Shown here: positions 19,319 to 38,200 of the stretch, one piece after another | How the letters are laid out: each line of letters begins with the position of its first letter | Numbering within the stretch: the stretch's first letter is position 1 | Assembly: GCA_045595785.1 (NCBI GenBank) | Contig: JAZOBE010000034.1 | Span: forward strand, 5,067 to 69,066 | Direction of reading: 5' to 3' | DNA length: 64,000 nucleotides | From: Eubacteriales bacterium | GTDB taxonomy: Bacteria; Bacillota; Clostridia; Oscillospirales; CAG-382 | Notes under the pieces: model-generated | Told to the model about the DNA's origin: nothing | Seen by the model: only the letters and a program-made list of their open reading frames with translations | The model's database searches: none | Program-made: the position numbers and the translations under genes

Positions 19319-19353
19319 GCTCTTTTCATCCAAAATAATCATGGAGGTAAATT

Positions 19354-20331
19354 ATGTCTAAAGATAAATACTCATCAGGTGACGGTTACATGTATGTGTA
19401 TCTTCTCTCGATAGTCGCTTGCGTCGTTGTAGCTTTAGTTGTGGCACTTATGGTGTTCGGTTCCGGACTTTTTAAGAAAAATAACGAATCCAACCCCGTG
19501 ATCGGAGACACTTCTGAAACTTCAAGCACAGTGTCTGAAGACAATACCTCTTATTCCGATAGTGACGTGAGTGAATCTTCCAGATTCACTCAGGGCTCTG
19601 TCGATAACGCCGTTGTAAACACAGGGTTATTAGTATTGGTTGATTCGAATCACAAATACGTTTTTCCGGAAGAAGACGACCGCGTAAATCTTTTTGCGGC
19701 TTTGAAGGGAAGTAACATTTCCTTCAGTGGTTCCGGTATTACAATGAACACCACTGCTGCAAAAGCACTCAAAGCAATGTGCGAAGCCTTCTACGCTGAA
19801 TCGGGAATGGACTCGGGCGTGTTGGTGTATAACGCCTATCGTTCTTACGATAAGGTCGCAGAGACTGATGGAGCGGACGCTGCCGGCACCAGTGATTTTC
19901 ATACCGGCAATTCGGTTACACTTATGTCTTGGCCCGCATCGCTGGGCGAGATAGGAGAGGGAAGATTTGCTTGGTTTACCGAAAATTGCTATTCTTACGG
20001 CTTTATTCAACGTTTTCCTGCCGATAAAGAGTCTGTCACCGGATATCCTCCCAACGGCACCATAAACCGTGGCGTTGTGTATAGATATGTTGGTGTTTGC
20101 CATGCATATTATATGTATAAGAACAACCTTTGCTTGGAGGAATATCTTGAACTGCTTAAGCAGTATACTCCTGATGCACCGTTGATTATCGACGTCCAGA
20201 ATAAATCCTATGAAGTGTATTACCAGCCTATGGAAGATGGGTTGACTTCTAACATCTATATTCCGGTGGAAGATGCGTATCTCATTTCAGGTAATAACTC
20301 TGATGGATTTATTATAACGATCACCGGTTGA
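19354..20331 (+). CDS. membrane-anchored VanY/M15-family D-alanyl-D-alanine carboxypeptidase-like protein
   Basis: 325 aa. N-terminal TM segment, S/T/E-rich linker, then YNAYRSY...SDFHTGNSV...GFIQRFP, which resembles the M15B SxHxxGxAxD / W..E..GF core. Confidence 0.6.
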   Translation: MSKDKYSSGDGYMYVYLLSIVACVVVALVVALMVFGSGLFKKNNESNPVIGDTSETSSTVSEDNTSYSDSDVSESSRFTQGSVDNAVVNTGLLVLVDSNHKYVFPEEDDRVNLFAALKGSNISFSGSGITMNTTAAKALKAMCEAFYAESGMDSGVLVYNAYRSYDKVAETDGADAAGTSDFHTGNSVTLMSWPASLGEIGEGRFAWFTENCYSYGFIQRFPADKESVTGYPPNGTINRGVVYRYVGVCHAYYMYKNNLCLEEYLELLKQYTPDAPLIIDVQNKSYEVYYQPMEDGLTSNIYIPVEDAYLISGNNSDGFIITITG

Positions 20332-20344
20332 TCAATGTTATTTT

Positions 20345-20372
20345 AGGAAGGCCTTGTGCCTTCCTTTTTTTA
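20345..20372 (+). terminator. rho-independent terminator after the PFOR/VanY-like unit
   Basis: aggaaggc-cttgt-gccttcct followed by T7. Confidence 0.85.
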
Positions 20373-20885
20373 TTAACGAGATCCGGCTGCAGTTGAAATC
20401 GGCTTTTACAGTCTGTGTTCGGAAGGATTAAGAATGCTTTCTGGCTAAAATGGCCCAAAAAAGGCAAGCAAATGCGTAGAACAAATGTTTTGTGCGCGTG
20501 AGCACAATGACGAAAATGCTATCGAGTTTTTGTGCAAAGTGTACATTGAAATCGGCTGCTGTGAGACGGTTTTTTTAACAATGCGTGATTGGCGGTCGTG
20601 AATGCGCGGCTGTGTATAATTTTGTTTAATAAATACGTCGTCCATAATTATATATGTTCATTGTTTTAAGTCGTTGGAATGTTCAAAAAACCTTAATATT
20701 TCAAAGATTTTTTTCGGATACGTTTTAATATTGAATGAATGGTGAATGTTTTGTAATTTTTGTATTAATTTTAATTATATGATAGATGTTTATAATCGGC
20801 AAATAATGGAACGTGCTTAAAAAAACGATTGTTAGTACAAATAGGTAAAAAGCGCACAAAAAGAAAGCAACATATATATACACTA

Positions 20886-20914
20886 TTGACAAAAATGGGC
20901 GTTAGTGGTAATAT
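20886..20914 (+). promoter_or_regulatory. putative sigmaA promoter of the seven-gene ABC-type operon (TTGACA-17 nt-TAATAT)
   Basis: Perfect -35 hexamer at 20886-20891 and -10 at 20909-20914, 70 nt upstream of ATG 20984. Confidence 0.5.
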
Positions 20915-20940
20915 TCATAATAACCAATATAATGTGTATT

Positions 20941-20954
20941 AAAATGCGCATTTT
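20941..20954. promoter_or_regulatory. perfect 14-bp palindrome in the operon 5' UTR (candidate operator)
   Basis: AAAATGC|GCATTTT lies between the predicted -10 and the GGGAGG RBS. Confidence 0.3.
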
Positions 20955-20983
20955 CTCAGAAATCATTTGGGAGGAACTATTTC

Positions 20984-23900
20984 ATGACCAAGTTTAAGAA
21001 CTGCTTTTCCAAGTTAATGGCGGTCTTGCTCGTTTGTCTTATGCTGCTGGGCGATTTTGCTCTTGTCGGCGTTCAGGCAAAGGTTGAGTCTGTTGACGGT
21101 TCTGATTCTTTGGTTCGTACATCCCTTGCCGAAATTGAGAAGTTGCTTACTTCCGTTTCGTATTCCGAGTATCTTCGTGATCACTGGAATGTAAAGGATG
21201 CGACCCAGGAGATCGTTATAGATCTTTCTGCCGATCTTTCGGAAGATTCTACCGCTACAGTCGATATGCGAGCAGACGGCTACGAGAATTCAGGCTGCCC
21301 CGTGCTCCTTATGGGTGATGACGGCAAGCTTGTATTTAATATCGACGTTCCTGAAACAGCGATGTATTCAGTTTACATCGAATACTGGACCGGAGATATC
21401 GAAGTTCTCGCTGCAGACGGTTCTGTTGCAGCTATCGGTAAATCTGCGGACATCGAGCGTGTAATTTATTTTGATGATGCTGTTTCCTATAAGGAAACCA
21501 GATCTCTTTCCTTTACCCGCGCTTGGAAAGATGTTTACACAAAGATTGAAGATGGCAATAAAAAGACATATTTTGATTCTGTAAGTGATTATTTCCTTGA
21601 TTTTGTTCGTAATCAGGAAAATATGTTTGCTGACAGTGATCGTTTGTTCCCGTACGACAGTAATGGCAATGAAGCTAAGCCTACCAAAGAAATCTATGGT
21701 ATGTGGGCTTCTACTTACGTGTACGATACCAGCGGATATTCTTACGTAACTGAATATAAGCGTGATGAAAATGACGATCTGGTTCCTGCAAACGAAGAAG
21801 ATCCTTATTACTATGGTCCTCTCAAGTATTATTTGACAGAAGGTGCCCATACCTTTAATATCGAGGCTATCACCGAGCCTATGGCTATTAAGAGCATCGT
21901 TATTAAGGCTGCTGAAAAAACTCTTTCTTACGAGGAGTATATTGCTAAGCATGAAGCAGCAGGTGCAAAGGATTATACCGGTGAAGCTGTTAAGATTCAG
22001 GCTGAATATCCTGTTCTTACTTCTGACCGTACCTTGTACCAGATTAATGACAGAAAGTCTTCTATCTCTGAGCCTCAGGATTCCACTCTTATCCGTTACA
22101 ACAGTATCGGCTCTAACAAGTGGCAGTATGTTGGTCAGTGGATCGAATACACTGTTGTTGTTGAAGAATCCGGCTTCTATAACATAATTCCTCGTTCCAA
22201 GCAGGAAGATGTTATGGGCTCGTTCGTTTCAAGAATGATTTATATTGACGATGAGATTCCTTTCGAAGAGGCAAAGGATCTTCGTTTCAATTATTCTACC
22301 AGTTGGAAGACAGACGTACTTAACAACGGAAAACAGAACTTTAAGTTCTATCTTGAAGAGGGCGAACACACGATCCGTTTCCAGGTTGTTCTTGGTGACA
22401 TGTCCGGTGTTCTCGGCCGCGTTTCCGACTCTCTTTCCAACCTTAATGAGTACTATAAGAAGATACTTATGATCACCGGTGCAGAACCCGATGAAAACCG
22501 TGACTATAAGTTCCATAAACTTATTCCCGATGTTATTAAGGGCTTGGCCGAAGAAGCTGTAAATCTTAATAATATTGCAAATGACATTATTGCTATTTCC
22601 GGTAGTGCTGGTGACCAGACCGGTACTCTTCTCAAGGTTGCCGTAATAGTTGAGAGAATGGGTAAGGATCCCACCCAGATAGCAGGTTATATGGATACTC
22701 TTAAGGAGTACACTGCAACTCTTGGTACCTGGCTTTCCGACAACACTTCTCAGCCTCTGCTTTTGGACTACATCTCCATTCAGGCAGTAGATGCTGACGC
22801 TCCTAAGGCGGAAGCAGGCTTCTTTGCTTCCATGTGGGCAGAGATTCTTAAGTTTATTGGTTCCTTCTCCGCTGATTATAACTCTATCGGTTCTCTTATT
22901 GAAAGAGACTATTCCAGCGAAGAGCTTCAGAAGTGCGCTATCGACGTATGGACCGCAAGTTCACGTGAAGACGCAACCATTATTCGTAACCTGGTAGATG
23001 ATTCCTTCAACGAAAAGTATAACATTCCCGTTAACGTTAAGCTCGTTGTTGGTTCTACCTTGCTTCCCGCAACACTCGCACGTACCGGCCCTGACGTATA
23101 TATGGGTGCGGGACAGAGCGACCCCGTTAACTACGCTATCCGTTCTGCTGTTTACTCTCTTAACAGCGATGCTCATGGTTACAACTTTAACGATCTTTCT
23201 AAGTGGGAGGACCATCCCGTATATGGCGAATTTATCGATGAAATTGCTACATTTGACGAAGTGACTGAAAGATTTGCACCTGCTGCTATGGTTCCTTTCA
23301 CACTTTATGGTGAAGCATACGGTATTGCTGATACAATGTCCTTCTCTATGATGTTCTACAGAAAAGACCTTTTTGTTGAACTCGGCCTTGAAGTTCCCAA
23401 TACTTGGGATGATTTCTATGATCTCATTTATACCATGCAGTCCAACTCTCTGGACATCGGCTTCCCTCAGGGTACAGGCGGTTCCTTCATATGGGCTTAT
23501 CAGCAGAATGATGATTTGTTTGTAACTTATACTGACGAAGAATACGATTATTATCTTGATCAGCTTCTTACCCAGTACTCTATGGATGAGCTTAAAGAAA
23601 TGGGATGGGTTTATACCGATTCCGAAGGAAAAGTTCGTCCTAAGATCGATGGTATGGAAATTAACATAGGTAGTAACGTAATGCTCGAGACCTTCAAGAA
23701 GGTTTGCGAACTGTTTACTGACTACGACTTCCCGTACTCCTACAGTATTGCAACTCGTTTCCGTCAGGGTATTATGCCTCTCGCAATTGCTGATTATACT
23801 TCTACTTATAATACTATGGTAATATTTGCACCTGAAATTGCCGGTCTTTGGGAGTTCACTCCGCTGCCCGGTACCTATGATGCAGAGACTGAAACCATTA

Positions 23901-24361
23901 ACAACAGTACTATTGCAGGCGTTTCTTCCCTTATAATGATGAACGGTGTAACCGATGAGAATGCTCTTGCTGCTTGGACCTTCATGCAGTGGTGGTCCAG
24001 TGCTGACGTACAGTCCGAATTCGGTAACGAAAAGATCGCTCTGCTCGGTCCTTCCGCTAAATATGCTACTGCTAACGTTGAAGCTCTTCAGAAGATGAGC
24101 TGGTCTAAGGACGAGCTTGATAATCTGGTTGCTCAGTTTAACGCAGTTGAATGTACACCCGAATATCCCGGTTCTTACATTATCGGACGTTTCACAAGCT
24201 TCGCTTTCTTGGGCGCATATAACAACGGCGATAACCCTGTAGAAAAAATGCGTTCATACATTGATGATATTAATAACGAGCTTACACGTAAACGCGGTGA
24301 GTTCAACCTTCCCACTACGGGAACATTTAACGACATAGCGTCTTCAAACGCTAAATCTTAA
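20984..24361 (+). CDS. giant extracellular solute-binding protein (two N-terminal CBM-like beta-sandwich modules, a helical linker and a family-1-type ABC SBP domain)
   Basis: 1125 aa. Has a signal/anchor peptide. Duplicated module: YSVYIEYW..VIYFDDAVSYKE..LSFTRAWKD..YYLTEGAHTF versus WIEYTVVV..MIYIDDEIPFEE..LRFNYSTSWKTD..FYLEEGEHTI. The C-terminal ~480 aa resemble sugar SBPs. Directly followed by permease genes. Confidence 0.75.
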   Translation: MTKFKNCFSKLMAVLLVCLMLLGDFALVGVQAKVESVDGSDSLVRTSLAEIEKLLTSVSYSEYLRDHWNVKDATQEIVIDLSADLSEDSTATVDMRADGYENSGCPVLLMGDDGKLVFNIDVPETAMYSVYIEYWTGDIEVLAADGSVAAIGKSADIERVIYFDDAVSYKETRSLSFTRAWKDVYTKIEDGNKKTYFDSVSDYFLDFVRNQENMFADSDRLFPYDSNGNEAKPTKEIYGMWASTYVYDTSGYSYVTEYKRDENDDLVPANEEDPYYYGPLKYYLTEGAHTFNIEAITEPMAIKSIVIKAAEKTLSYEEYIAKHEAAGAKDYTGEAVKIQAEYPVLTSDRTLYQINDRKSSISEPQDSTLIRYNSIGSNKWQYVGQWIEYTVVVEESGFYNIIPRSKQEDVMGSFVSRMIYIDDEIPFEEAKDLRFNYSTSWKTDVLNNGKQNFKFYLEEGEHTIRFQVVLGDMSGVLGRVSDSLSNLNEYYKKILMITGAEPDENRDYKFHKLIPDVIKGLAEEAVNLNNIANDIIAISGSAGDQTGTLLKVAVIVERMGKDPTQIAGYMDTLKEYTATLGTWLSDNTSQPLLLDYISIQAVDADAPKAEAGFFASMWAEILKFIGSFSADYNSIGSLIERDYSSEELQKCAIDVWTASSREDATIIRNLVDDSFNEKYNIPVNVKLVVGSTLLPATLARTGPDVYMGAGQSDPVNYAIRSAVYSLNSDAHGYNFNDLSKWEDHPVYGEFIDEIATFDEVTERFAPAAMVPFTLYGEAYGIADTMSFSMMFYRKDLFVELGLEVPNTWDDFYDLIYTMQSNSLDIGFPQGTGGSFIWAYQQNDDLFVTYTDEEYDYYLDQLLTQYSMDELKEMGWVYTDSEGKVRPKIDGMEINIGSNVMLETFKKVCELFTDYDFPYSYSIATRFRQGIMPLAIADYTSTYNTMVIFAPEIAGLWEFTPLPGTYDAETETINNSTIAGVSSLIMMNGVTDENALAAWTFMQWWSSADVQSEFGNEKIALLGPSAKYATANVEALQKMSWSKDELDNLVAQFNAVECTPEYPGSYIIGRFTSFAFLGAYNNGDNPVEKMRSYIDDINNELTRKRGEFNLPTTGTFNDIASSNAKS

Positions 24362-24380
24362 CGAGGAGGAGGAAAATCTA

Positions 24381-25316
24381 ATGGCTAAAGAAAAAGCTGT
24401 CGTCAGAAAAGACATTTCCAGATTCAGATGGACTTTAGGTGAGATAAGAAAACACAAGGTTGCTTATCTTATGGTAGCTCCTTTCTTCATTCTCTTCCTT
24501 ATGTTCTATGTAGTACCCGTTGTACTGTCAGTAGTTCTCAGCTTTACCATATTTAATATGCTTGAGTTTCCTACTTTCGTATTTCTTGATAACTACATTC
24601 GTCTTCTGTTTGATGATGAAGTGTTCATTACCGCTATTAAGAACACTTTGATATTTGCAGTTATCACCGGTCCTGCATCTTATTTGCTCTCTTTGTTCTT
24701 CGCATGGTTCATTAATGAGCTGCGTCCGAAGATCCGTGCGTTCCTTACTTTGGTATTCTACGCTCCTTCTATTTCCGGTGCGGTTTACCTCATTTGGTCT
24801 GTATTCTTCTCCAGTGACCAGTACGGTTTCGTTAATGCATATCTTATCGAATACGGTATCATAACAAAGCCCGTTCTTTGGTTCCAGGATACTGATACTA
24901 TTTTCCCGCTTATTATCGTAGTTGCTCTTTGGACTTCTTTGGGTACCAGCTTCCTTACCTTTATAGCTGGTTTCCAAGTAGTTAATAAAGACCTCTATGA
25001 GGCTGGTGCTATCGACGGTATTAAAAACCGTTGGCAGGAACTTTGGTATATAACCCTTCCTTCCATGCGTCCTCAGATGATGCTTTCCGCAATTCTGGCT
25101 ATTACAGGTGCATTCGGCTTCGGTGGTGTTATTACCGCACTCGTTGGCTTCCCGTCTCCCGACTATTGTGTTCACACCATAATGCATCACCTTGATGACT
25201 ATGGCGGAGCACGTTATGAAATGGGTTACGCTTCCGCAATCGCTACGATTCTGTTCTTTATGATGATCGGATGTAACCTCTTAATTACTCGAATTCTCAG
25301 AAAGGTAGGTTCATAA
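24381..25316 (+). CDS. ABC transporter permease (MalF/LplB-type sugar permease)
   Basis: 311 aa with 6 predicted TM helices. EAA loop YEAGAIDGIKNRWQELWYITLP. Confidence 0.9.
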   Translation: MAKEKAVVRKDISRFRWTLGEIRKHKVAYLMVAPFFILFLMFYVVPVVLSVVLSFTIFNMLEFPTFVFLDNYIRLLFDDEVFITAIKNTLIFAVITGPASYLLSLFFAWFINELRPKIRAFLTLVFYAPSISGAVYLIWSVFFSSDQYGFVNAYLIEYGIITKPVLWFQDTDTIFPLIIVVALWTSLGTSFLTFIAGFQVVNKDLYEAGAIDGIKNRWQELWYITLPSMRPQMMLSAILAITGAFGFGGVITALVGFPSPDYCVHTIMHHLDDYGGARYEMGYASAIATILFFMMIGCNLLITRILRKVGS

Positions 25317-25317
25317 T

Positions 25318-26235
25318 ATGTTTAAGAAACTTTCCGAGAAAATCGACCAACGCAGAGTTGCTAGAGGCAAGCAGCCCAAAGAGCAGTTCAAGCGTTCGAT
25401 CAACCGTTCTGCCGGCGGTGACTTCGGCGTTCTGTTCTTCCTCTGCTTGTGTGCTTTGGCAATGTCTCTTCCCGTAATTTATGCTATTGGTCAGTCCTTC
25501 AAGCCTCTTGATGAGCTTTGGCTGTTCCCGCCTCACTTTTTCCCCAACAGATGGGTTATCGATAACTTCGTTGACCTGTTTAAGTTAATGGGCGACTCTT
25601 GGGTACCTTTCTCCAGATACATATTCAATACTGTTTTGATATCTTTTGCAGGTACCTTTGGTAACGTTATTCTTTCTTCCTTTGCTGCTTATGCAATTGC
25701 AAAGATTCCTTTCCCCGGAAGAAATATAATGTTCCAGACAATCGTATATTCTTTGATGTTTAACTCTACTGTAACCGGTATTACCAACTTCTTGCTTATG
25801 AGCTGGCTCAAGATGATCGATACCTATTGGGCAGTAATCGTTCCCGCTTGCTGTACTACCTTCGGTCTCTACCTCATGAAGCAGTTTATGGAATCCTCCG
25901 TTACCGATGCGGTTCTTGAATCCGCTCGTATCGACGGTGCAGGGGAATTCAGAATCTTCTGGAAGATAGCAATGCCTATGGTTAAGCCCGCTTGGATCAC
26001 ACTTATCATCTTTGCATTTAAGGATCTGTGGAACTCCGGCGCCAGCACCTATATTTACAGTGAAGAACTCAAAACCTTTAACTATGCAATCAGCCAGCTG
26101 GTAACCAGTGGTGTTGCACGTACCGGTGTGTCTGCCGCTTCTACCGTTGTAATGATGGTTGTTCCTTGTGCGGTATTCTACATCACTCAGAGTAACGTAA
26201 TTCAGACAATGTCCACCTCGGGCATGAAAGACTAA
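25318..26235 (+). CDS. ABC transporter permease (MalG/LplC-type sugar permease)
   Basis: 305 aa. EAA loop LESARIDGAGEFRIFWKIAMP. Starts 1 nt after the preceding stop. Confidence 0.9.
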   Translation: MFKKLSEKIDQRRVARGKQPKEQFKRSINRSAGGDFGVLFFLCLCALAMSLPVIYAIGQSFKPLDELWLFPPHFFPNRWVIDNFVDLFKLMGDSWVPFSRYIFNTVLISFAGTFGNVILSSFAAYAIAKIPFPGRNIMFQTIVYSLMFNSTVTGITNFLLMSWLKMIDTYWAVIVPACCTTFGLYLMKQFMESSVTDAVLESARIDGAGEFRIFWKIAMPMVKPAWITLIIFAFKDLWNSGASTYIYSEELKTFNYAISQLVTSGVARTGVSAASTVVMMVVPCAVFYITQSNVIQTMSTSGMKD

Positions 26236-26252
26236 GAGAGGAGATATTAATA

Positions 26253-28427
26253 ATGAAAAAAATACTTGCAAAATCTCTCCTCTTTTGTGTCTGCTTTATG
26301 CTTATCGGTATGTTTGTGGTTTCCGAATTCGCTTTAACTGCCGATGCTCGCGTTCCTTACACGACCTATACTTATGATATCGAAGCTTTCATGCAGGAAA
26401 GCCCTCACGTTTACGTGCCCCATGTTCAGATTACTTCTGCCAGCATCAAGAAGTCTCTTCTTGATCCCAGCAACCCTGCTTCTGCAAAGTATAATCACGA
26501 TGAGTTCGTAGATCTGTCCTCTCCTAAGGATGTGTTTGTTGATGATCTGGAGTATGTATATATTGCTGATACCGGCAATAGCCGTATCCTTGTTCTTGAC
26601 GAACAGTACAGACTCCATCTCATAATCAAAGAATTTGTTAACGATCAGGGCGTACCCGATTCTCTCGCTTCTCCTGAAGGCGTATTCGCTACCGAGACTG
26701 AGATCTACGTAGCTGATACTGAGAAATCTCGTATCGTTATATTCGATAAGCTGGGTAACTTCCTGGATATCGTTCATGAACCTGTATCAGAGGTTATGCC
26801 TGAGAACTCCGTATATAAGCCTTCTGCAGTTGCAGTTGACTCTGCCGGACGTATCTATGTTGTTGGTAAAGCTACCAACTACGGTATTATTTCTCTTAAC
26901 CGTGACGGTTCCTTTAACGGATTCGTTGGTGCTATTACTCAGCAGGCAAACGCTTGGCAGTTGTTCTGGAGAAAGATCCAGAGCGCTCAGCAGAGAGAGT
27001 CCAGCGAAGCAATCGTTTCCATTGAGTACAACAATGTTACTATCGATGCTGACGGATTCCTTTACGCTACACAGAACGCAGATACCACTCAGGTTCCTGT
27101 TAAAAAGCTTAATCCTAAGGGAAGTGACGTTCTTAACAGAAACGGTTTCCAGCCTCCCTCCGGTGAAGCTCGTGTAACTTCTACTAACAGTACAGACTAT
27201 ACCATTAGCGGCGCTTCTTCTATTGTTGACGTTGCTCTTGGTGAGGCAAACACTTGGTCTATAATCGACCAGAAGCGTAGCCGTGTGTTTACTTATGATA
27301 GTGACGGTAACCTTCTGTTTGCTTTTGGTGATATGGGTGATCAGTTCGGTAATATCCAGCGTCTTTCCGCTATGGATTACCAGGGTTCATTCATGCTTCT
27401 CCTTGACGAGAGCACCAGCAATATCACTGTTTTTAAGCGTACCGAATATGGTGATCTGCTTATTTCCGCTGTACAGTCTATTGAAGATGGTGACTATTCT
27501 GCATCCGTTGAATATTACACCGCAGTTCTTCAGAGAAATAACAACTTTGACCAGGCTTATATCGCAATCGGTGATGCTAAGTACCGTGAAGGTGACTATG
27601 TAACAGCAATGCAGTATTACAAATACGCATATGACCAGGCAAGCTATTCCGAGGCTTATCGTATTTACCGTAAAGACTGGATGGAGACCAACCTTTGGAT
27701 CGTTGCTCTCGTTCTGGTAGTTGTTCTCGTTGCTGTTCTCCTCTTCTTCAAGTGGGTCAACAAGGTTAATAAGCGTGGTATTAAGTATTCCGAAAAACGT
27801 AAGTGGTACGAAGAAGTTTGCTATGGCTTCCACGTTATTTTCCACCCGTTTGACGGTTTCTGGGATCTTAAGCATGAAAAACGCGGATCCGTTCGCGGTG
27901 CGACTATCATCCTTATTCTTACCATTCTCACCTTTGTATACCAGTCTATTGGTAGAGGTTTCCTTTACAATATGTACGAAGGTACCGGCGTTAACTACGT
28001 AATGCAGATTTCTTCTATTCTGCTTCCCGTAGCACTTTGGACCATCTCTAACTGGTGTCTTACCACCTTGTTTGATGGCGAAGGCAGCCTTACTGACGTT
28101 TATATCACAACCTGTTATTCTTTGCTTCCCGTAGTTATGTTGGTTCTTCCTACCGTTATGGTATCTAACTTCGTAACTCTCAGCGAGCAGGGAATACTCA
28201 CCATGATCGAGACCATCGCTTGGGGATGGACAGCGCTTCTGTTGTTCTTCGGTATGATGGTTATTCACGATTACGGTCTTTTCAAGAATATTATCATTAC
28301 TTTTGCAACCATCATCTTTATGATGTTTGTAATGTTCGTAGCTATTCTGTTCACCAGCTTGATCGGTAGAGTATTTACCTTCTTCTACAACATCTACACC
28401 GAGCTGTCCTACAGATGGTCACTATAA
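26253..28427 (+). CDS. NHL-repeat beta-propeller / TPR / Yip1-like polytopic membrane fusion protein
   Basis: 724 aa. Signal/anchor peptide. NHL-type blades (VYIADTGNSRILVLD, IYVADTEKSRIVIFD, GRIYVVGKA). TPR-like YYTAVLQRNNNFDQAYIAIGDAKYREGDYVTAMQYYKYAY. Then about 6 TM helices in the last ~245 aa. Confidence 0.65.
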   Translation: MKKILAKSLLFCVCFMLIGMFVVSEFALTADARVPYTTYTYDIEAFMQESPHVYVPHVQITSASIKKSLLDPSNPASAKYNHDEFVDLSSPKDVFVDDLEYVYIADTGNSRILVLDEQYRLHLIIKEFVNDQGVPDSLASPEGVFATETEIYVADTEKSRIVIFDKLGNFLDIVHEPVSEVMPENSVYKPSAVAVDSAGRIYVVGKATNYGIISLNRDGSFNGFVGAITQQANAWQLFWRKIQSAQQRESSEAIVSIEYNNVTIDADGFLYATQNADTTQVPVKKLNPKGSDVLNRNGFQPPSGEARVTSTNSTDYTISGASSIVDVALGEANTWSIIDQKRSRVFTYDSDGNLLFAFGDMGDQFGNIQRLSAMDYQGSFMLLLDESTSNITVFKRTEYGDLLISAVQSIEDGDYSASVEYYTAVLQRNNNFDQAYIAIGDAKYREGDYVTAMQYYKYAYDQASYSEAYRIYRKDWMETNLWIVALVLVVVLVAVLLFFKWVNKVNKRGIKYSEKRKWYEEVCYGFHVIFHPFDGFWDLKHEKRGSVRGATIILILTILTFVYQSIGRGFLYNMYEGTGVNYVMQISSILLPVALWTISNWCLTTLFDGEGSLTDVYITTCYSLLPVVMLVLPTVMVSNFVTLSEQGILTMIETIAWGWTALLLFFGMMVIHDYGLFKNIIITFATIIFMMFVMFVAILFTSLIGRVFTFFYNIYTELSYRWSL

Positions 28428-28442
28428 GAAAGGAGTAGCAAT

Positions 28443-31337
28443 ATGAGTAAATATTTTAAATCAATTCTGGCATTAGCACTCTGCCTGCTGCTCTGTCTGC
28501 CTGTTCTTTCTTCAATGTCTGGCATCCTCGCTTTTGCTGCTGAGGATGCTTCCGAGGAAGAGAGTGCTGACGAAAACATTTGGGATACTAAGGGACCTGC
28601 ATATATGTCCGTTAGCTTCTCCAGTGTTAAGTCTCGTATTTTAGGTAACACTTCTTTGGATGCGCTTGAGCTTTATCTTGAGCCTACCGCTGCTATTCCT
28701 TACGCAATGTATGTGGATAAGCTGACCGGTGAAGTTATTGTTCTTCGCTGTAAAGCGCCTAACGCTGACGGTAAGTTTGAAACCAGTGCAGATGGTGTTT
28801 ACCTTTATCAGTCTTACTGGTGCTCCAATCCTTACAACGCAGGTGCAAGTACCAGCCCTTCCAAGTCTGCTTCTACAGACTCTATAAAGCGTCAGCTTTA
28901 TTCTCAGATAATTATTAAGTATGTTGATAAGAGTTCCAGCAATACCGAAAATGAAATGAACTCTTACAAGGATTCTGCAGTTAACAATCAGATTACTGTT
29001 AAAAAGATCGCTAATGGTATTCGTGTTGAATACAAGCTTGGTCGTGCAGAGAACACATATATGGTTCCTCGTGTTATTAAGCTTGAGAAATTCGAAGCGC
29101 TCCTTGCTCAGATCGTAGCTAACTGTACTGAAACTAGACCTGCAAAACGTTTTGAATCCTTTTATACTATCAAGAATATTCACGATGAGTCTATTTCTGA
29201 TAAGAGTAAAGAAGAATATTTAAAGAAGTATCCTATATGCGAGAAGTTCCCCATCGCTGTATGTGAGCCCGCTATTTCTGTTCAGGAGCTTAAGACTCTT
29301 GAAGGCTGGCTTAAGATGTACACCGATTACTCTCTTGAGCAGTTGGAAATCGACCATGACGAAGTTGAATATGTAAACACAGACGAAGCACCCGCACAGT
29401 TCAAGCTTGCTCTTGAGTATAAGCTTGATGCTAACGGTCTGTCTATTCGTTGTAACATGGGCAACGTTCGTTTTGACGCTTCTACTTATTCTCTTAAGAA
29501 CATTATGGTTCTTCCTTACGCCGGTACCGGTAACGTTGTTTCTAACGAGGGCTTTGTATTTACTGCAGATGGCTCCGGTAGCATTATCAACTTTTCTGAT
29601 ATAATCGGTACTCAGTTTAAGAATACCCATAAGATCTATGGTCAGGACTACGCTTATCAGGAAATCAGCGGTTCCAACAAGCAGGCAATGAGATTCCCTG
29701 TTTTCGGCATCGTTGAAACCAAGAACAGCTCCTACACTGAAAAGATCACTTCTACTGAATATGATGAAGACGGAAATGAGGTAGAGGTAGTTACTACCAA
29801 GTACCTTAAGAACGGTTATTTCGCAATAATCGAAGAGGGCGAATCTTTGGTTAACCTCACCATTGATAACGGTGGTGCAACCCACATGTTCGTTTCTTGC
29901 TATGGTACTATTAACCCTCGTCCTTCTGATAACATCAAACTTGATGCAGGTCTTTCTGCAGGTGCCGCTTCTTCTTGGAGCGTTGAGTGTGACCGTAAAT
30001 ACACTAAGGATTATAAATTAAGAGTATTCCTTCTTAACGATGAGGAATCTACAGTTTCCGGTATGGCAAATCTTTACCGTAAGTATCTTGACGATAAGGA
30101 TATCCTGTCTGCCGAAACCGTACCTACTGTTGAAGATATTCCTTTGTATATCGAAACTCTTTGTGCACTTGAGACCAGCACTACCTTCCTCGGTGTTCCC
30201 GTACTTGAAATGATGTCTATGTCCAGCTTTGACAAGATCATCGAAATGCTGGAACTCCTTGGTGACGAAGCTGATATCTCCAATGTTAAGCTCAGACTTA
30301 TGGGTTGGCAGGACGGCGGTATTGGTTATACTGTTCCTAACGGCGTAAACGTTGAAGACGTTATCGGCGGCGAAGAGGGACTTAAGAAACTCCTTGAGTA
30401 CGCTAAGTCCAGCGGTGCTACCGTATATCCCGATTTCGACTTTGTTTATGCTCATCACGATAAGTGGTTCGATGGCTTCTCTCAGTCCAAAGACCTTGCA
30501 AAGACTATTAATGACCGTTTCGCAAGACATCAGTTCTACAGCGCGCTGTACCAGGGTTATTCCAGATCCGGTATGGGTATCATTTCTGCCAGCGTGATGG
30601 ATAAGTTCTATACCAACTGCTGGAAAGAATATGAAGAATTTGGTATTGGTAGTATCTCTATCGGTACTCTCGGCGAGTCTCTTTCTTCTGACTTTGATGA
30701 AGACGAACCTTTTAACCGCGAAGATAACAAGATTATCATTACTAAGTTGCTTTCCAAGATCAAGGGTGACAACGGTAAGGTAATGGTAAGCGGCGGTAAC
30801 GCATATACTCTTCCTTACGTTAGTGATATCGTTAATATCGCACTTGACGACTCCGGTTACAAGTATTCCGCAACCAGCGTACCTTTTGTTGGAATGGTAC
30901 TCCACGGTTACGTTGAATATGCAGGCGAGCCTATCAACCTTGCAGGTGACTATCGTTACACCGTACTTAAGACTATTGAAAACGGCGCTAACCCTTACTT
31001 CGTTCTTGCAATTGAGAACACTTCCGAACTTAAGAAGTATAACACTTGGTACGAAGTTTCTGGTTACTATTCTGTTCGTTACAATATCTGGCTTAACGAT
31101 ATGGTTACCACTTACAGAGAACTTAACGAAGCTCTTGCGGACGTTAAGACTTCCAACATCATCAATCATGAGTTCCTTGATGACGAATATAAAGTTGTTA
31201 AGGTAACCTACAGCAATGGTATTTCTTACATCATCAACTACAACCTTACTGCTGTAACCGTTGAGGTTGACGGTACGGAATACACTGTCGGCGGCGAAGA
31301 TTTTATAAAGCTCGATGCTGACGGCAAGAAAATTTAA
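28443..31337 (+). CDS. large secreted protein of unknown function (possibly a DUF5696-type, TIM-barrel-like C-terminal half)
   Basis: 964 aa. Signal peptide ALALCLLLCLPVLSSMSGILAFAAED. Alternating beta/alpha pattern in aa ~600-900 (VKLRLMGWQDGG..ATVYPDFDF..GSISIGTLGE..KVMVSGGNAY..VPFVGMVLHGYVEY). No catalytic signature that I can name. Confidence 0.55.
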   Translation: MSKYFKSILALALCLLLCLPVLSSMSGILAFAAEDASEEESADENIWDTKGPAYMSVSFSSVKSRILGNTSLDALELYLEPTAAIPYAMYVDKLTGEVIVLRCKAPNADGKFETSADGVYLYQSYWCSNPYNAGASTSPSKSASTDSIKRQLYSQIIIKYVDKSSSNTENEMNSYKDSAVNNQITVKKIANGIRVEYKLGRAENTYMVPRVIKLEKFEALLAQIVANCTETRPAKRFESFYTIKNIHDESISDKSKEEYLKKYPICEKFPIAVCEPAISVQELKTLEGWLKMYTDYSLEQLEIDHDEVEYVNTDEAPAQFKLALEYKLDANGLSIRCNMGNVRFDASTYSLKNIMVLPYAGTGNVVSNEGFVFTADGSGSIINFSDIIGTQFKNTHKIYGQDYAYQEISGSNKQAMRFPVFGIVETKNSSYTEKITSTEYDEDGNEVEVVTTKYLKNGYFAIIEEGESLVNLTIDNGGATHMFVSCYGTINPRPSDNIKLDAGLSAGAASSWSVECDRKYTKDYKLRVFLLNDEESTVSGMANLYRKYLDDKDILSAETVPTVEDIPLYIETLCALETSTTFLGVPVLEMMSMSSFDKIIEMLELLGDEADISNVKLRLMGWQDGGIGYTVPNGVNVEDVIGGEEGLKKLLEYAKSSGATVYPDFDFVYAHHDKWFDGFSQSKDLAKTINDRFARHQFYSALYQGYSRSGMGIISASVMDKFYTNCWKEYEEFGIGSISIGTLGESLSSDFDEDEPFNREDNKIIITKLLSKIKGDNGKVMVSGGNAYTLPYVSDIVNIALDDSGYKYSATSVPFVGMVLHGYVEYAGEPINLAGDYRYTVLKTIENGANPYFVLAIENTSELKKYNTWYEVSGYYSVRYNIWLNDMVTTYRELNEALADVKTSNIINHEFLDDEYKVVKVTYSNGISYIINYNLTAVTVEVDGTEYTVGGEDFIKLDADGKKI

Positions 31338-31351
31338 GAGGAGGGAATAAA

Positions 31352-32371
31352 ATGGATAAGGCACTTAAAAAAGACCAGGTTCTTACCAACGATACCACAG
31401 CGGTAGACGTGCAGTCTTTGAAGGTCAAAAAGAAGAAGAAAAAAGCCAAGTCTCTTGAAAAGCAGAAGTCTATCTTCGGTTGGCTGTTCATTCTTCCGTT
31501 CCTTCTCGGTTTTGTTCTCATCTACTTGCCGATGATAATTTCTTCTCTCCAGATCTCTTTCAGCTCTATTGAGTACGAAAAAGTAGGTCAGGTTCTGAAG
31601 TGGGTTGGCATTGACAACTACTCTTCTGCGCTTGGTGATTCTTCTAATTTCGTCCAGACACTCGTTGAGTGTCTGGGTGGAATGGCGTTCGATATTCCCG
31701 CAATCATCATATTCTCTCTGTTTATGGCAATTTTGCTTAACCAGGATATGAAGGGAAGAGCGGCATTCCGTGCAATCTTCTTCGTTCCCGTTATCGTTTC
31801 TACCGGTATTATTGAAGCGATTGACCTTAGCAACCAGCTGGCACAGTTGGGTGAAAACGTTACTCAGCTTGGTCAGGACGGTGTTGATGGCACTGTCAGC
31901 GCCGGTGTAGAGATTATTAACGCTATTGATGTTGAGCGCTTCTTCGGTAACATGAAGATCGGTGCTGAGCTTGCAGGCATCGTTAGTGGATGGGCAAACA
32001 ACGTTTATAACATCGTAAACCGTTCCGGTGTTCAGATGCTTATATTCCTTGCGGCGCTTCAGTCTATTTCTCCTTCCATTTACGAATCTTGCCGTGTTGA
32101 GGGCGCTACTGCTTGGGAGACCTTCTGGAAGATTACCTTCCCGATGATCAGCCCCATGATCCTTGTTAACCTTGTTTATACGGTAATTGACTCTTTTACT
32201 ACCAAGTCCAACGTAATGATGTCATTCATTGCAGGCGAGCTTACTAAGCCTAACGGAAAGCCTGCTGGTACTGCAATGGCTTGGATGTACTTCCTCATAG
32301 TTATCGTTATTCTGGCAGCATTGTCAGGCATAGCCTCGATGTTTGTATTCTATCAGCGTCGAGAGAAATAG
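31352..32371 (+). CDS. ABC transporter permease (MalF-type), second pair
   Basis: 339 aa. Lys-rich N-terminal tail (KVKKKKKKAKSLEKQK). EAA loop YESCRVEGATAWETFWKITFP. Confidence 0.85.
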   Translation: MDKALKKDQVLTNDTTAVDVQSLKVKKKKKKAKSLEKQKSIFGWLFILPFLLGFVLIYLPMIISSLQISFSSIEYEKVGQVLKWVGIDNYSSALGDSSNFVQTLVECLGGMAFDIPAIIIFSLFMAILLNQDMKGRAAFRAIFFVPVIVSTGIIEAIDLSNQLAQLGENVTQLGQDGVDGTVSAGVEIINAIDVERFFGNMKIGAELAGIVSGWANNVYNIVNRSGVQMLIFLAALQSISPSIYESCRVEGATAWETFWKITFPMISPMILVNLVYTVIDSFTTKSNVMMSFIAGELTKPNGKPAGTAMAWMYFLIVIVILAALSGIASMFVFYQRREK

Positions 32372-32381
32372 GAGGTGCGGT

Positions 32382-33587
32382 ATGAGCTTTATCGAAAAAA
32401 TTAAAGGACTTTTCTCTCGCAAACCTAAGTTTGAAAAGGTTGCAACCGGTAACGCAAAAATTGATACCGAAACCACGTTTTGGGAGCGCGTTAAGGCTAA
32501 GTACATCAATCTGTACTTCCTTAAGAAAGTTGCTTGGATGATCTTCAGATTAGTACTTCTTGTAGGTATTTCTTACGTTATTATCTACCCGTACTTCTCT
32601 AAGGTTACCACCTCTCTTATGGCTCCTGAAGACTTTGTTGATACCACAGTAGTTATGATCCCTCGTAACTGGACTTTGGATACATACAAGGCTATTATTA
32701 ACGATAATAAGTATTTCACTGCTATGTTTAATACTGCACTGCTTTCTTTGCTTTGCGGTGTTATCCAGACTTTGATCTGCTCCATCGTTGGCTACGGCTT
32801 TGCAAAGTTCAAATTCAAGTTTAAGGGTATCCTCTTCCTGTTGGTTATCTTTACCATGGTCGTTCCTCATGAGACCATTCGTCAGGCACTTATCTTGCGA
32901 TTCAGGTATTTCGATTTATTTGGTTATATCCCGCAGATAAATAGCTGGCTGTTCAATTTCTTTGAGGGAACCGGTATGGAAGGCTTGAAGGAATCACTTA
33001 TTTCTTTTGCTGATTCTGCTTGGCTGAAAGGCTTTATCAAGTATTCCAAGGAAGTAACTGATGGCACAGGATTTATGGAAGTTTATTCCAAGGTTGTTGA
33101 TAAGTTGATTCCCAACCTTTTGAATACTTACTGGCCTATGGCTGTTCTGTCTCTCACCGGTCTTGCATTTAAGAACGGTTTGTACATCTTTATGATGCGT
33201 CAGTATTATAACGGTGTCCCCGATGAGCTTGAAGAAGCAGCATACGTTGACGGCGCAGGCGTAATTAAGACCTTTGTTCGTATCATTCTTCCTATGTCTT
33301 TGACAATGATGGTAACAATATTTATGTTCTCCTTCTCTTGGCAGTGGATGGATACGTTCTATACCGAGGTATTTATGCCCGGCGGAACCAGCGGAAACGT
33401 TCTGCTCAGCCATATTTACTCAACCATTCCTACTTCTTTGGATACAGACTATGCAGGTCAGGCGGCTTATACAACCGCTATCAGAAACGCATCCGGTATT
33501 CTTATACTGATCCCGCTTCTTATCATGTACCTCTTCGGTCAGCGTACCCTTATCGAAGGCGTTGAGCGTTCCGGTATTACCGGCTAA
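32382..33587 (+). CDS. ABC transporter permease (MalG-type) with a ~90-aa insertion, second pair
   Basis: ~401 aa from the ATG at 32382, which is preceded by AGGAGG (the track ORF starts at an upstream TTG). EAA loop LEEAAYVDGAGVIKTFVRIILP. An extra segment RYFDLFGYIPQINSWLFNFFEGTGMEGLKESL...KLIPNLLNTYWP is not expected in ~280-aa MalG-type permeases. Confidence 0.8.
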   Translation: MSFIEKIKGLFSRKPKFEKVATGNAKIDTETTFWERVKAKYINLYFLKKVAWMIFRLVLLVGISYVIIYPYFSKVTTSLMAPEDFVDTTVVMIPRNWTLDTYKAIINDNKYFTAMFNTALLSLLCGVIQTLICSIVGYGFAKFKFKFKGILFLLVIFTMVVPHETIRQALILRFRYFDLFGYIPQINSWLFNFFEGTGMEGLKESLISFADSAWLKGFIKYSKEVTDGTGFMEVYSKVVDKLIPNLLNTYWPMAVLSLTGLAFKNGLYIFMMRQYYNGVPDELEEAAYVDGAGVIKTFVRIILPMSLTMMVTIFMFSFSWQWMDTFYTEVFMPGGTSGNVLLSHIYSTIPTSLDTDYAGQAAYTTAIRNASGILILIPLLIMYLFGQRTLIEGVERSGITG

Positions 33588-33596
33588 TAAAAGTAT

Positions 33597-33628
33597 TAAA
33601 AGAGTTGCCGAGTTCGGCAACTCTTTTT
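33597..33628 (+). terminator. rho-independent terminator ending the seven-gene operon
   Basis: aaaagagttgccg-agtt-cggcaactctttt plus T: a 13-bp stem with a U-tract. Confidence 0.85.
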
Positions 33629-33714
33629 GATTATGTAAGTATTTCTTTTTATTGCAATATAATGCGTGTTGTGATAGAATATTATAAAGTTGAGTGCTGG
33701 TCAGAGGTGAAAAA

Positions 33715-34572
33715 ATGAGTAAATTATATTTTACGAATATACGTGAAATATCCGCATTGTATTATGCCTTGCATTGTAATGGATATGAATATTCTGTTTA
33801 CGAACGCGATACATCTCTTATCAATCGGCTCGAATCTTTTCGCAGTCAAGAAAAATCAACTTTTTTTGGTTTTGTAAAACAAACGTATTGTGAAACATAT
33901 CCATATTGGCCGCGTGCTTCAATGCTTGAAAACGCTTCTTTGTTTTTGAATAAGGAAATAAGTTCTTTTAATAATTTCGAAAAACTAAAAAAGAAAATAA
34001 TGTCTGCATCCAATATTGATGCTGAACAGAAAAACGATGAGTTTTGGGATTGGTTAGCTCAATATCCTAACGCCTTGGCGAAAATTATTAATAGTGAAGA
34101 ATTTGGTACGTATTTCGCTTGGGAAAGTAATTGGATCGCCAAACAAAACGAGGCTTATGAAAATGAGATCCAAGCCGTTCTAACTGCGCTGGAGTTTTGC
34201 ACTAATAATTACGGCGATCATATTAAAAGCATAAAACTAATACTTAACCCAATAAAATGTGTCTATTCTGCAGATTACTATTTGTATGATGACATTTTTG
34301 TTTTCTGTTCCGGCGGTTTTAAAGCTGAAAGTGTAATTCATGAGTTTTTGCATGTATATGTTCACTCGTTTATGGAGATGTTCGATTTTGATAACCACAC
34401 TTGCAAATTTCCGGGAATCGATGGTTCGTATTACCTTAATGGTGACGAATCCGGTATTAAAAATGCGTTTGAAGAATATATTGTGAGAAAACTTACTGAC
34501 GCTTTTGTAAATTATGAGCCTCCTTATGATATAAACAGCTTTATTTCAAACATTTATAACGACTTATTGTGA
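33715..34572 (+). CDS. hypothetical protein with an HExxH motif (possible zinc-dependent hydrolase)
   Basis: ~285 aa from the ATG at 33715, after AGAGGTGA. The only recognisable element is VIHEFLHVYVH (HExxH). The gene looks A/T-rich by eye. Confidence 0.5.
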   Translation: MSKLYFTNIREISALYYALHCNGYEYSVYERDTSLINRLESFRSQEKSTFFGFVKQTYCETYPYWPRASMLENASLFLNKEISSFNNFEKLKKKIMSASNIDAEQKNDEFWDWLAQYPNALAKIINSEEFGTYFAWESNWIAKQNEAYENEIQAVLTALEFCTNNYGDHIKSIKLILNPIKCVYSADYYLYDDIFVFCSGGFKAESVIHEFLHVYVHSFMEMFDFDNHTCKFPGIDGSYYLNGDESGIKNAFEEYIVRKLTDAFVNYEPPYDINSFISNIYNDLL

Positions 34573-34579
34573 GGTTTTT

Positions 34580-35014
34580 ATGGATTTTTCTATTAGAATG
34601 GCAGAAACAAAAGATAGCAAAGCCATATGTATTCTTAATACTGAAGAACTTGGCTATAACTATCCCATTGATAATACAGCAATAAATTTGTCTGACATTA
34701 TTAATGACAGCAAACAATGTGTCTATGTAGCTGAATTCGATAATACGGTTATCGGATATATCCACGCTACTGTGTACCAATTGATATATTTGCCAAAATT
34801 AGTGAATATATTAGGTCTTTCTGTTGCCGAAGAGTATCATCACCGTGGAGTAGGTTCTGCGCTTCTTAACGCAATCGAGAAATGGGCGCATAACATCGGA
34901 GCACAAGGTATAAGATTAAACTCTGGAGAAGAAAGAACCGATGCACATTTGTTCTATAAAAAGTGCGGATATGAGCTTTCAAAAAAACAATTCAGTTTTA
35001 AGAAAACATTATAA
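34580..35014 (+). CDS. GNAT family N-acetyltransferase
   Basis: 144 aa. Acetyl-CoA binding motif HHRGVGSALLNAIEKWA (Q/RxxGxG/A) and a C-terminal FYKKCGY. Confidence 0.85.
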   Translation: MDFSIRMAETKDSKAICILNTEELGYNYPIDNTAINLSDIINDSKQCVYVAEFDNTVIGYIHATVYQLIYLPKLVNILGLSVAEEYHHRGVGSALLNAIEKWAHNIGAQGIRLNSGEERTDAHLFYKKCGYELSKKQFSFKKTL

Positions 35015-36313: not shown

Positions 36314-36682
36314 CTATTTATTTTTACTCCTGAATAATATTGACCAAATAAGTGCAAATAGTATTGCAGCGGAGATTCCAGCTGCTGTTGATTTTATCCC
36401 ACCGTATAATATTCCGAATATACCATCGGTATTTATTGCTTCCTTTACGCCCTCGGCAAGTGTGTTTCCAAAACCCGTAAGCGGAATTGCTGCACCTGCG
36501 CCCGCCCATTTAATAAGCTTAGGATAAATACCCAATGCGTTAAGCAGTACACCACCGCATACATAGCCAACAAGAATGTATGCGGGCGTCAGTTTTGTTT
36601 TATCTATTAATATTTGCGCAATGAGACATAGCGTACCGCCAACAATAAAAGCTTTCAATAATAACAAAAAATCCATTTTCAA
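36314..36682 (-). CDS. spoVAE: stage V sporulation protein AE (SpoVAEB type)
   Basis: 122 aa polytopic protein. Third gene of a spoVAC-AD-AE unit. 4-nt overlap with spoVAD. Confidence 0.8.
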   Translation of the reverse strand: MKMDFLLLLKAFIVGGTLCLIAQILIDKTKLTPAYILVGYVCGGVLLNALGIYPKLIKWAGAGAAIPLTGFGNTLAEGVKEAINTDGIFGILYGGIKSTAAGISAAILFALIWSILFRSKNK

Positions 36683-37665: not shown

Positions 37666-38120
37666 AACTTAATTCCCAGTCTCATAACAATATAATATAT
37701 TATTCCGTATATTACACTTGCCGCGGAACCATAAACTATTACCGGACCGGCAATTACAAACATTTGCGCCGCTACACCCTTAATATATCCCTCGCTTTTT
37801 GCTTCGATGGCAGGGGAGGCGACTGCATTTGCAAAACCGGTTATTGGAACAAGCGTACCTGCACCTGCATATTTTGCCAGCTTATCAAACCAACCGATAC
37901 CCGTAAATAAGCCGGAAAGAAATACCAAGGTTACTGAAGCCAGAGTCGCCGCTACCTTTTCATCGCTCAAAAATGCGTTATAAAGCATTGTTAACAGCTG
38001 TCCTATTACGCATATCAATCCTCCGGTTAAAAAAGCGAAAAAGCAGTTCTTAACAGAAGGCGTTCGTTTTGCACGGCTTTCCGCTAAATTAATATATTCT
38101 TGTCTATTCACAACAACCAC
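37662..38120 (-). CDS. spoVAC: stage V sporulation protein AC
   Basis: ~150 aa polytopic protein (GTLVPITGFANAVASPAIE). Paralogous to the SpoVAE-type protein. The GTG start may instead be at 38111. Confidence 0.85.
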   Translation of the reverse strand: MVVVNRQEYINLAESRAKRTPSVKNCFFAFLTGGLICVIGQLLTMLYNAFLSDEKVAATLASVTLVFLSGLFTGIGWFDKLAKYAGAGTLVPITGFANAVASPAIEAKSEGYIKGVAAQMFVIAGPVIVYGSAASVIYGIIYYIVMRLGIKL

Positions 38121-38136
38121 CTCTTTTTAATGGTTT

Positions 38137-38166
38137 TAATTTGTGCTAAAACACAAAATTTATTCA
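38137..38166 (-). promoter_or_regulatory. possible forespore sigmaG/sigmaF-type promoter of spoVA genes
   Basis: The minus strand reads tGAATAaattttgtgttttagcaCAAATTA, which approximates GHATR-N17-CATxxTA. It sits ~20 nt upstream of the RBS. Confidence 0.3.
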
Positions 38167-38172
38167 ATTCTC

Positions 38173-38200
38173 TTGACAAGTCGGTACTTTAGGGTATAAT
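38173..38200 (+). promoter_or_regulatory. putative sigmaA promoter of the acyl-AMP ligase/ACP pair (TTGACA-16 nt-TATAAT)
   Basis: Consensus hexamers at 38173-38178 and 38195-38200. Confidence 0.5.

Follow-up and report, generated by a model that had tools for sequence, protein, structure and literature searches.

A conserved seven-gene cassette of Clostridia joins CUT1-type permeases to a GH129-like protein and a Yip1-domain membrane protein

The cassette described here comprises seven co-directional genes (g1–g7; positions 20984–33587) on a contig of an Eubacteriales bacterium of the CAG-382 lineage (assembly GCA_045595785.1, contig JAZOBE010000034.1, positions 5067–69066); the whole 64 000-nt stretch analysed is called the window, and coordinates refer to it. 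We lean towards reading this locus as a system that captures, trims and imports an alpha-glycan, is energised in trans and is expressed as one transcription unit. The cassette is kept as a unit across related genomes. Its transport parts are those of a CUT1-type sugar ATP-binding cassette (ABC) importer without an ATPase of its own, as the original prediction from the bare DNA letters had it. Its large secreted protein g5, in which that prediction could recognise no glycoside hydrolase and name no catalytic signature, is a probable glycosidase remotely related to families GH129 and GH101.

Conservation as a unit and genomic setting

Relatives of g5 were counted with each species represented by one genome, and at least 573 species genomes encode one. 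When the best 80 loci were compared by tblastn with the seven window proteins, the order and strand of g1–g7 were identical in 80 of 80, down to 31–40% protein identity, with incomplete cassettes only at contig ends. The same seven genes were found in a Clostridiales genome from aquifer sediment and in contigs of JGI metagenomes, where gene calls were independent and Pfam matches precomputed. The adjacency of the seven genes is far beyond chance and, because their order is the same in all 80 loci, it is not fortuitous; the original prediction had named loss of the gene set in related genomes as a way in which it might fail, and the set proved to be conserved. Carriers belong to the class Clostridia (Eubacteriales, Oscillospiraceae, ‘Ruminococcus’, a few Lachnospiraceae, Candidatus Flemingiibacterium and Coliplasma) and come from the guts of livestock and other animals, including the rumen, and from aquifer sediment, groundwater and subsurface sites.

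The window is a housekeeping region that holds pth, mfd, PFOR, spoVA, dnaX, PEPCK, ksgA and prs. Its order PFOR – VanY-like carboxypeptidase – cassette – spoVAC/AD/AE – AMP-binding enzyme (AMP-ligase) – recR/ybaB/dnaX is common to the window (parts 15740–20331 and 36679–45580) and to Clostridiales bacterium GWF2_38_85 (L161, 1–21925), where the block is kept although g5 is only 40% identical. Across the loci, a VanY-like gene lies 5' of the cassette in 40 and PFOR in 37. Retention of the PFOR-to-dnaX block at such a distance indicates that the cassette is vertically inherited and core-like rather than a mobile accessory locus.

Operon structure

All seven genes lie on the + strand, separated by gaps of 19, 1, 17, 15, 14 and 10 nt (in one relative, L163, g5 and g6 overlap by 4 nt), and a Shine–Dalgarno sequence stands ahead of each of the seven start codons. 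For g7 the lister of open reading frames (ORFs) gave a TTG start at 32343; we chose the ATG at 32382, which has AGGAGG in front of it and yields the 10-nt gap to g6 that the original prediction implied.

A 650-nt AT-rich spacer separates g1 from the terminator of the preceding VanY-like gene. The sigmaA-type promoter (20886–20914, + strand; TTGACA, a 17-nt spacer and a TG-extended TAATAT) is identical base for base in five relatives (L002–L006) whose proteins are ~83% identical, while the sequence farther upstream has diverged. In 42 of 66 orthologous loci a −35 box, TTGACAAA, precedes the g1 ATG, its median position being −103. The overall promoter scan returned 35 sites against 34 expected from shuffled sequence, so that the scan alone proves nothing. 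The cassette promoter is apparently strong and constitutive. About 25 nt 5' of the −35 box is a conserved non-coding element of 32 nt, TTAGTACAAATAGGTAAAAAGCGCACAAAAAG (20832–20863, + strand), which is near-identical in the same five relatives while the surrounding spacer has diverged; it has no match to the cre consensus and may be an operator.

At the other end, an intrinsic terminator hairpin (33598–33627) consists of a 13-bp stem, AAAAGAGTTGCC / GGCAACTCTTTT, followed by T's on the + strand; the − strand also reads as a terminator. Its GAGTTGC/GCAACTC stem is kept in relatives, in which the loops differ. That g1–g7 form a single transcript is a well-supported prediction, and the co-directional ORFs with gaps of 1–19 nt, the promoter, the terminator and the single transcription unit that had originally been proposed all stand.

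A GH129-like protein in family DUF5696

The 964-aa product of g5 (28443–31337, + strand) is a secreted protein that matches Pfam DUF5696 (E 2e-141). It consists of a signal peptide, a lineage-specific N-terminal domain (aa 46–310), a beta-sandwich (aa ~319–531), a (beta/alpha)8 barrel (aa ~538–901) and a C-terminal beta-sandwich (aa 906–957). An AF2 model built from a 45-sequence alignment (pLDDT 84, pTM 0.81) predicts the architecture of GH129, in which a beta-sandwich is followed by a (beta/alpha)8 barrel and a second, C-terminal beta-sandwich; the domain architecture of DagB has been described (PMC5698469). By Foldseek the model is closest to ZgDagB (5opq, E 1e-30, target TM-score 0.69), a GH129-like 3,6-anhydro-D-galactosidase, and then to NagBb (5wzn, E 1e-21, target TM-score 0.71), a GH129 alpha-N-acetylgalactosaminidase; the target TM-scores for the two jointly are 0.69–0.72. 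Alpha-glycosidases of GH101 (~1e-13), GH31 and GH36 come next, and all of these structural neighbours are retaining alpha-glycosidases.

Profile comparison points the same way. Aligned by hhalign, the g5 alignment and NagBb are collinear over 515 columns (probability 84.5%, E 7e-6), g5 aa 334–945 corresponding to NagBb aa 3–633 with an identity of ~19% over the aligned columns. Searched directly against PDB, the g5 sequence gave nothing significant, and the profile of its orthologues returned only GH129 chains among PDB sequences, at non-significant E values of 0.15–0.5. The full-length NagBb sequence was recovered from gut-metagenome loci (L090, human gut), a query with a NagBb fragment having yielded only short fragments, and its numbering was checked against the published Trp398. 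On Pfam, the full-length protein scores 50.9 bits on DUF5696 (cut-off 25.6), 34.2 on GH101 and 23.5, below cut-off, on Glyco_hydro_129; the fragment scores 37 bits on DUF5696. A characterised enzyme is therefore already inside this Pfam family, for which our literature search found no paper mentioning DUF5696 (PF18952). At E up to 1e-3 the family comprises 5690 representative clusters, and members of 1400–2500 aa (P0292, P0305, P0334, P0275, P0261) carry extensions or insertions without a Pfam domain.

In the alignment, D750 of g5 (codon 30690–30692, + strand) falls next to NagBb Asp435, the equivalent of ZgDagB Asp486, with a one-residue indel and F751~F437 as the anchor; P791~P485, D802~D496 and H821~H519 are further anchors (hhalign and manual alignment). 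Of 76 orthologue sequences at least 97% have Asp at position 750, as do 142 of the 150 family representatives that were aligned, and we infer from the alignment that D750 is a candidate catalytic nucleophile. Other conserved carboxylates are D376, D496, D761 and D802.

On the evidence of sequence and model, g5 is probably a glycosidase and a remote GH129/GH101-clan (beta/alpha)8 protein; its membership of CAZy GH129 is not established. The processing parts of the cassette, which had been taken to belong to no recognisable catalytic family, thus include a probable glycosidase. It had also been proposed that the idea of novel processing parts would fall if g4 and g5 belonged to characterised families with a known substrate. 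The family of g5 is indeed characterised, and this tells in part against the idea, but it brings no substrate with it, and the identity to NagBb is only ~19%.

The binding protein, the permeases and the missing ATPase

The product of g1 (20984–24361, + strand; 1125 aa) is a secreted solute-binding protein (SBP) in which the Pfam SBP_bac_8 match is limited to aa 673–1030. Its AF2 model (pLDDT 82) resolves a signal peptide, beta-sandwiches at aa 77–310 and 336–470, a helical bundle at aa 473–588 and a binding-protein fold at aa 593–1125. By Foldseek the binding domain is nearest to oligosaccharide SBPs (5ysb, 9xf5 and MalE; target TM-scores 0.72–0.81), the ligands of which are beta-1,2-glucooligosaccharide, cycloisomaltooligosaccharide and maltodextrin. 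The protein thus has the MalE-like SBP fold of CUT1 systems by both Pfam and Foldseek. In 44 g1 orthologues CBM_35 was matched in 14 and Golvesin_C in 10, and the sandwiches are therefore similar to carbohydrate-binding modules (CBMs), specifically CBM35-like.

Both g1 and g5 carry signal peptides of the signal peptidase I (SPase-I) type, and a lipobox is found in only 4 of 66 g1 and 1 of 76 g5 orthologues; because they lack a lipobox, both would need a tether. The mature N-terminus of g1, VESVxGSDSLVRTSL (aa ~31–49, window 21074–21130), is strongly conserved in orthologues directly after the cleavage site, and so is that of g4, VPYTTYTYD, after its own. This hints at functional N-terminal peptides, e.g. 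docking strands.

Four BPD_transp_1 proteins form two permease pairs, each with an EAA loop in every member: g2 (24381–25316; 311 aa; EAGAIDGIKNRW) with g3 (25318–26235; 305 aa; ESARIDGAGEFR), and g6 (31352–32371; 339 aa; ESCRVEGATAWE) with g7 (32382–33587; 401 aa; EAAYVDGAGVIK). All are on the + strand, and the four loops are exactly those quoted originally. The MalF/UgpA-type members are g2 and g6 and the MalG/UgpE-type members g3 and g7, their NCBIfam matches being below the equivalog cut-offs. The pairs are only ~23% identical and hence old paralogues, so that a recent duplication as the source of the second pair was rejected. Hydropathy indicates extracellular insertions of ~55 aa in g6 and ~85 aa in g7, the latter variable and poorly conserved. 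The invariant residues of g6 (83 of 339 in 72 sequences) outnumber those of g2 or g3. To our knowledge MalFG-type subunits with EAA loops occur only in importers, and an exporter role was rejected on their presence in the cassette.

The original prediction was also right that the operon has no ATPase, second SBP or regulator: none is found in the cassette across the 80 loci, and no regulator gene recurs in the flanks of related loci. Of 699 flank ORFs, three (484–1188 aa) have ABC ATPase motifs, none of them MsmX-like or MsmX-sized and none recurrent within 6 kb, and the sole ATPase of the window is part of a distinct, Pot-like system. Sharing of an ATPase supplied in trans is established among Firmicute CUT1 importers (PMC7658222, PMC5730181).

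A membrane protein with propeller, TPR and Yip1 domains

Between the permease pairs, g4 (26253–28427, + strand) encodes a 724-aa membrane protein with Pfam matches to NHL, SBBP, TPR_16 and Yip1. A signal peptide is followed by an NHL beta-propeller (aa ~36–400), TPR (aa ~404–470), a transmembrane helix (aa 481–499) and Yip1 (aa 526–697). Hydropathy indicates ~460 extracellular residues, one transmembrane helix, a basic cytoplasmic segment and then the Yip1 helices, with four hydropathy peaks inside the Yip1 span. The Yip1 match (PF04893) is nearly complete, covering profile positions 1–172 of 173 (E 5e-14; 52.9 bits against a cut-off of 28.6). Matches among PDB sequences are NHL propellers and TPR proteins. 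Across 66 orthologues 111 residues are invariant, including the motifs HPFDGFWDLKHEKRG (aa 531–545, cytoplasmic) and NW..TTL..GEG...D (aa 600–615). With these parts, the domain content first listed for the operon (SBP_bac_8, four BPD_transp_1, NHL/TPR/Yip1 and DUF5696) is borne out by Pfam, and the annotation originally given for similar neighbourhoods, solute-binding protein / YIP1 / DUF5696, matches both Pfam and the source names in Clostridia. Our literature search found no paper joining a YIP1 family protein with a sugar ABC transporter permease, and a single paper on Yip1 together with SBPs or ABC transporters.

Among the extracytoplasmic components, g4 alone is anchored in the membrane, and from this a scaffold role suggests itself.

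A proposed mechanism and the evidence against it

In the reading we favour, the CBM35-like modules of g1 would hold a polymer or long oligosaccharide and pass an oligosaccharide to its own MalE-like domain, while g5 would cleave alpha-glycosidic bonds with Asp750 as nucleophile. The products would be imported by g2/g3 and g6/g7, acting as distinct MalFG-type translocators that would both draw on one MsmX/MsmK-type ATPase encoded at another locus. The propeller/TPR arm and Yip1 domain of g4 would keep g1 and g5 at the translocators. What the analysis shows is how the operon is built, that it is conserved as a unit, to which fold and family each part belongs, and that an ATPase or regulator is lacking nearby; the alpha-glycosidase activity, the direction of transport, the class of substrate, the supply of energy in trans and a scaffold function for g4 are what we infer. 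Host mucin as the specific substrate was rejected, given that aquifer and groundwater genomes carry the cassette as well, and mucin is unlikely to be the sole substrate.

Several observations weigh against this reading. The Pfam models Glyco_hydro_129 and Glyco_hydro_101 are matched neither by g5 nor by its 45 orthologues at E up to 10. Position 750 is Asn or Ser in 8 of the 150 aligned sequences, and the NagBb acid/base Glu478 falls on Ser-Gly-Gly-Asn of g5 (aa 783–786), in which Gly-Gly-Asn, and so N786, is invariant. Because Glu478 is replaced in this way and D750 is not universal, hydrolytic activity of g5 is not assured. No ATPase for the cassette was located within the window, no precedent was found for one SBP serving two permease pairs, and contact between g4 and the other cassette proteins is conjectural. 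In 66 upstream regions, cre (CcpA) sites number 0 (background 1.4% per 400-nt window), and a search of 19000–35000 against Rfam at E up to 1 found no riboswitch or leader, its sole match being a chance sRNA over the terminator. A vertically inherited housekeeping neighbourhood, with no regulator, cre or riboswitch, is atypical for a nutrient-specific utilisation locus.

The missing Glu is not in itself an argument against activity, because DagB is active with the same pattern, only the Asp435 equivalent being conserved and the Glu478 equivalent absent (PMC5698469). Alternative acids in g5 may be E760, D761 or D802.

A bolder version of the same reading, which we regard as doubtful, is that the cassette represents an undescribed, composite class of ABC importer. 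Here g4 would tether the non-lipidated, CBM-bearing g1 and the GH129-like g5 over the two MalFG-type translocators, such that depolymerisation would be physically coupled to alpha-glycan uptake, and the whole would be core, vertically inherited and constitutive in a large clade of Clostridia.

Comparison with known systems

Among known systems, the closest are the Firmicute CUT1 importers that share MsmX/MsmK (AraNPQ, GanSPQ and YesOPQ of B. subtilis), for which E. coli MalEFGK2 is the structural paradigm. Like these, the cassette has an SBP of the MalE-like cluster-B fold and MalF/MalG-type permeases with EAA loops, and no ATPase gene in the operon (PMC7658222). The cassette differs from them in having two permease pairs to one binding protein, and in an SBP of 1125 aa with two CBM35-like modules, a helical bundle and an SPase-I signal peptide without lipobox. 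It further differs in the NHL/TPR/Yip1 protein and the GH129-like protein embedded between the permease pairs.

Gram-positive polysaccharide utilisation loci (gpPULs) are defined by a degrading enzyme, a transporter and a regulator. As in the gpPULs of gut Firmicutes, a probable glycosidase is co-transcribed with CBMs and an ABC sugar transporter. In contrast to them, the cassette lacks a regulator, both within the locus and next to it, in the relatives that were examined, and it has no cre site. Its promoter looks constitutive, and it lies in a housekeeping block of vertical inheritance, whereas a gpPUL would be expected to be accessory and inducible. The earlier likening to such loci needs to be qualified in these respects.

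For g5, the resemblance to NagBb (5WZN) and ZgDagB (5OPQ) extends to architecture and the nucleophile Asp, and with NagBb also to the Pfam family and the collinear profile alignment. The differences are an identity of ~10–19% to the two enzymes and an extra N-terminal domain of ~265 aa; g5 keeps neither Glu478 of NagBb nor its His320/Asp322, which the 5WZQ variant has mutated to Ala.

For g4, the nearest parallel is the YknWXYZ system of Bacillus. There YknYZ makes up an exporter of the MacB type, and YknW is not known to carry a large propeller/TPR domain outside the membrane. The partners of g4, by contrast, are permeases of a type I importer. YknW is a membrane protein with a Yip1 domain that serves an ABC transporter as accessory subunit (PMC4887032); g4 is likewise a bacterial Yip1-domain protein encoded, and presumably working, with the membrane subunits of an ABC transporter, a likeness that is an analogy only. 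Most likely the cassette is a CUT1 ABC importer combined with gpPUL-like features, an unusual variant rather than something wholly new.

Alternative explanations

The absence of dedicated control and the core setting are what one would expect if the cassette recycled a glycopolymer of the cell's envelope (for instance a peptidoglycan-linked glycan or a secondary cell-wall polysaccharide) as a constitutively expressed housekeeping function. In that case g5 would trim the self polymer, g1 would capture the fragments and both translocators would recover them. The strong conserved promoter without dedicated regulator or cre site fits this explanation, as do the retained block of PFOR, spoVA, recR and dnaX with the vertical inheritance it indicates, and hosts that range from rumen to aquifer sediment, which speaks against a single dietary or host glycan. 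A gene for a VanY-type D-Ala-D-Ala carboxypeptidase stands immediately 5' in the 40 loci noted above, and in L163 a glutamate/aspartate racemase gene lies 5' of the cassette. The VanY gene is, however, set apart by its own terminator and the 650-nt spacer, and PFOR, plainly unrelated, is equally syntenic, so that the adjacency may reflect ancestral gene order only. Moreover, foraging for exogenous glycans is where CBM35-type modules and oligosaccharide SBPs are typically met, and the cassette carries no envelope-synthesis genes. We consider recycling unlikely overall.

Physical coupling of the parts may also be illusory. The cassette could comprise two importers that are merely co-transcribed and form no super-complex: an SBP-dependent g1–g2–g3, which has the classic module order, and g6–g7 with an SBP encoded elsewhere or none, g4 (e.g. 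a surface sensor) and g5 (a free secreted enzyme) being independent. The low identity between the pairs marks them as ancient paralogues rather than products of a recent duplication, and the poorly conserved extracellular insertion of g7 argues against a fixed docking surface there. Yet so strict an order in 80 of 80 loci, with tight or overlapping junctions, would be hard to keep without functional coupling; g6 is richer in invariant residues than g2 or g3; g1 and g5 have no membrane anchor; and a second SBP is absent in and beside every locus. Separate importers therefore seem to us an improbable account.

Very improbable, finally, is that g5 is a non-catalytic receptor of glycosidase fold for g6/g7, with g1 the receptor for g2/g3: the invariant Gly-Gly-Asn at the acid/base position, the location of g5 directly before g6/g7 (overlapping g6 in some loci) and the extra extracellular loops on g6 and g7 would suit it, but the nucleophile Asp is still conserved, as are D376, D496, D761 and D802, and we know of no glycosidase fold that serves as an ABC receptor. 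ZgDagB, too, is active without the same acid/base residue (PMC5698469).

Other features of the window

Right after the cassette terminator, a 292-aa ORF (33694–34572) has its own promoter-like site and no Pfam match, and it does not recur 3' of the cassette in related loci. A 683-aa ORF (115–2166) is likewise without a Pfam match. On the − strand, an 889-aa protein (9556–12225) begins with ECF-type sigma-70 regions 2 and 4, an unusually long sigma-factor fusion whose long C-terminal part gives weak TPR and DUF3108-like matches.

A PotABCD-like ABC importer (49219–56700) comprises an ATPase with TOBE_2, two permeases and an SBP. Its SBP gene is overlapped by 4 nt by a gene for a 1126-aa protein with a GHL10/DUF4015 glycoside-hydrolase-like domain, so that the window has two ABC importers that are each paired with a giant glycoside-hydrolase-like protein.

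Implications

The occurrence of an identical seven-gene cassette in all 80 loci examined, together with a g5 relative in at least 573 species genomes, gives these proteins a significance beyond the window. Through the link between DUF5696 and GH129/GH101, a domain without an assigned function and with over 5600 representative clusters becomes a family of candidate alpha-glycosidases. An annotation gap that affects thousands of ‘DUF5696’ proteins comes to light as well, in that NagBb scores higher on DUF5696 than on the GH129 model of Pfam itself.

For transport, one SBP, two permease pairs and a Yip1/NHL/TPR protein depart from the picture of one receptor and one translocator. From its place in the core genome and a promoter that looks constitutive, the cassette would seem to have a basic role in these poorly known gut Clostridia. 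The cassette is also a tractable entry to the function of bacterial Yip1 proteins, and if the composite importer set out above were real, it would give these proteins their first defined role in import.

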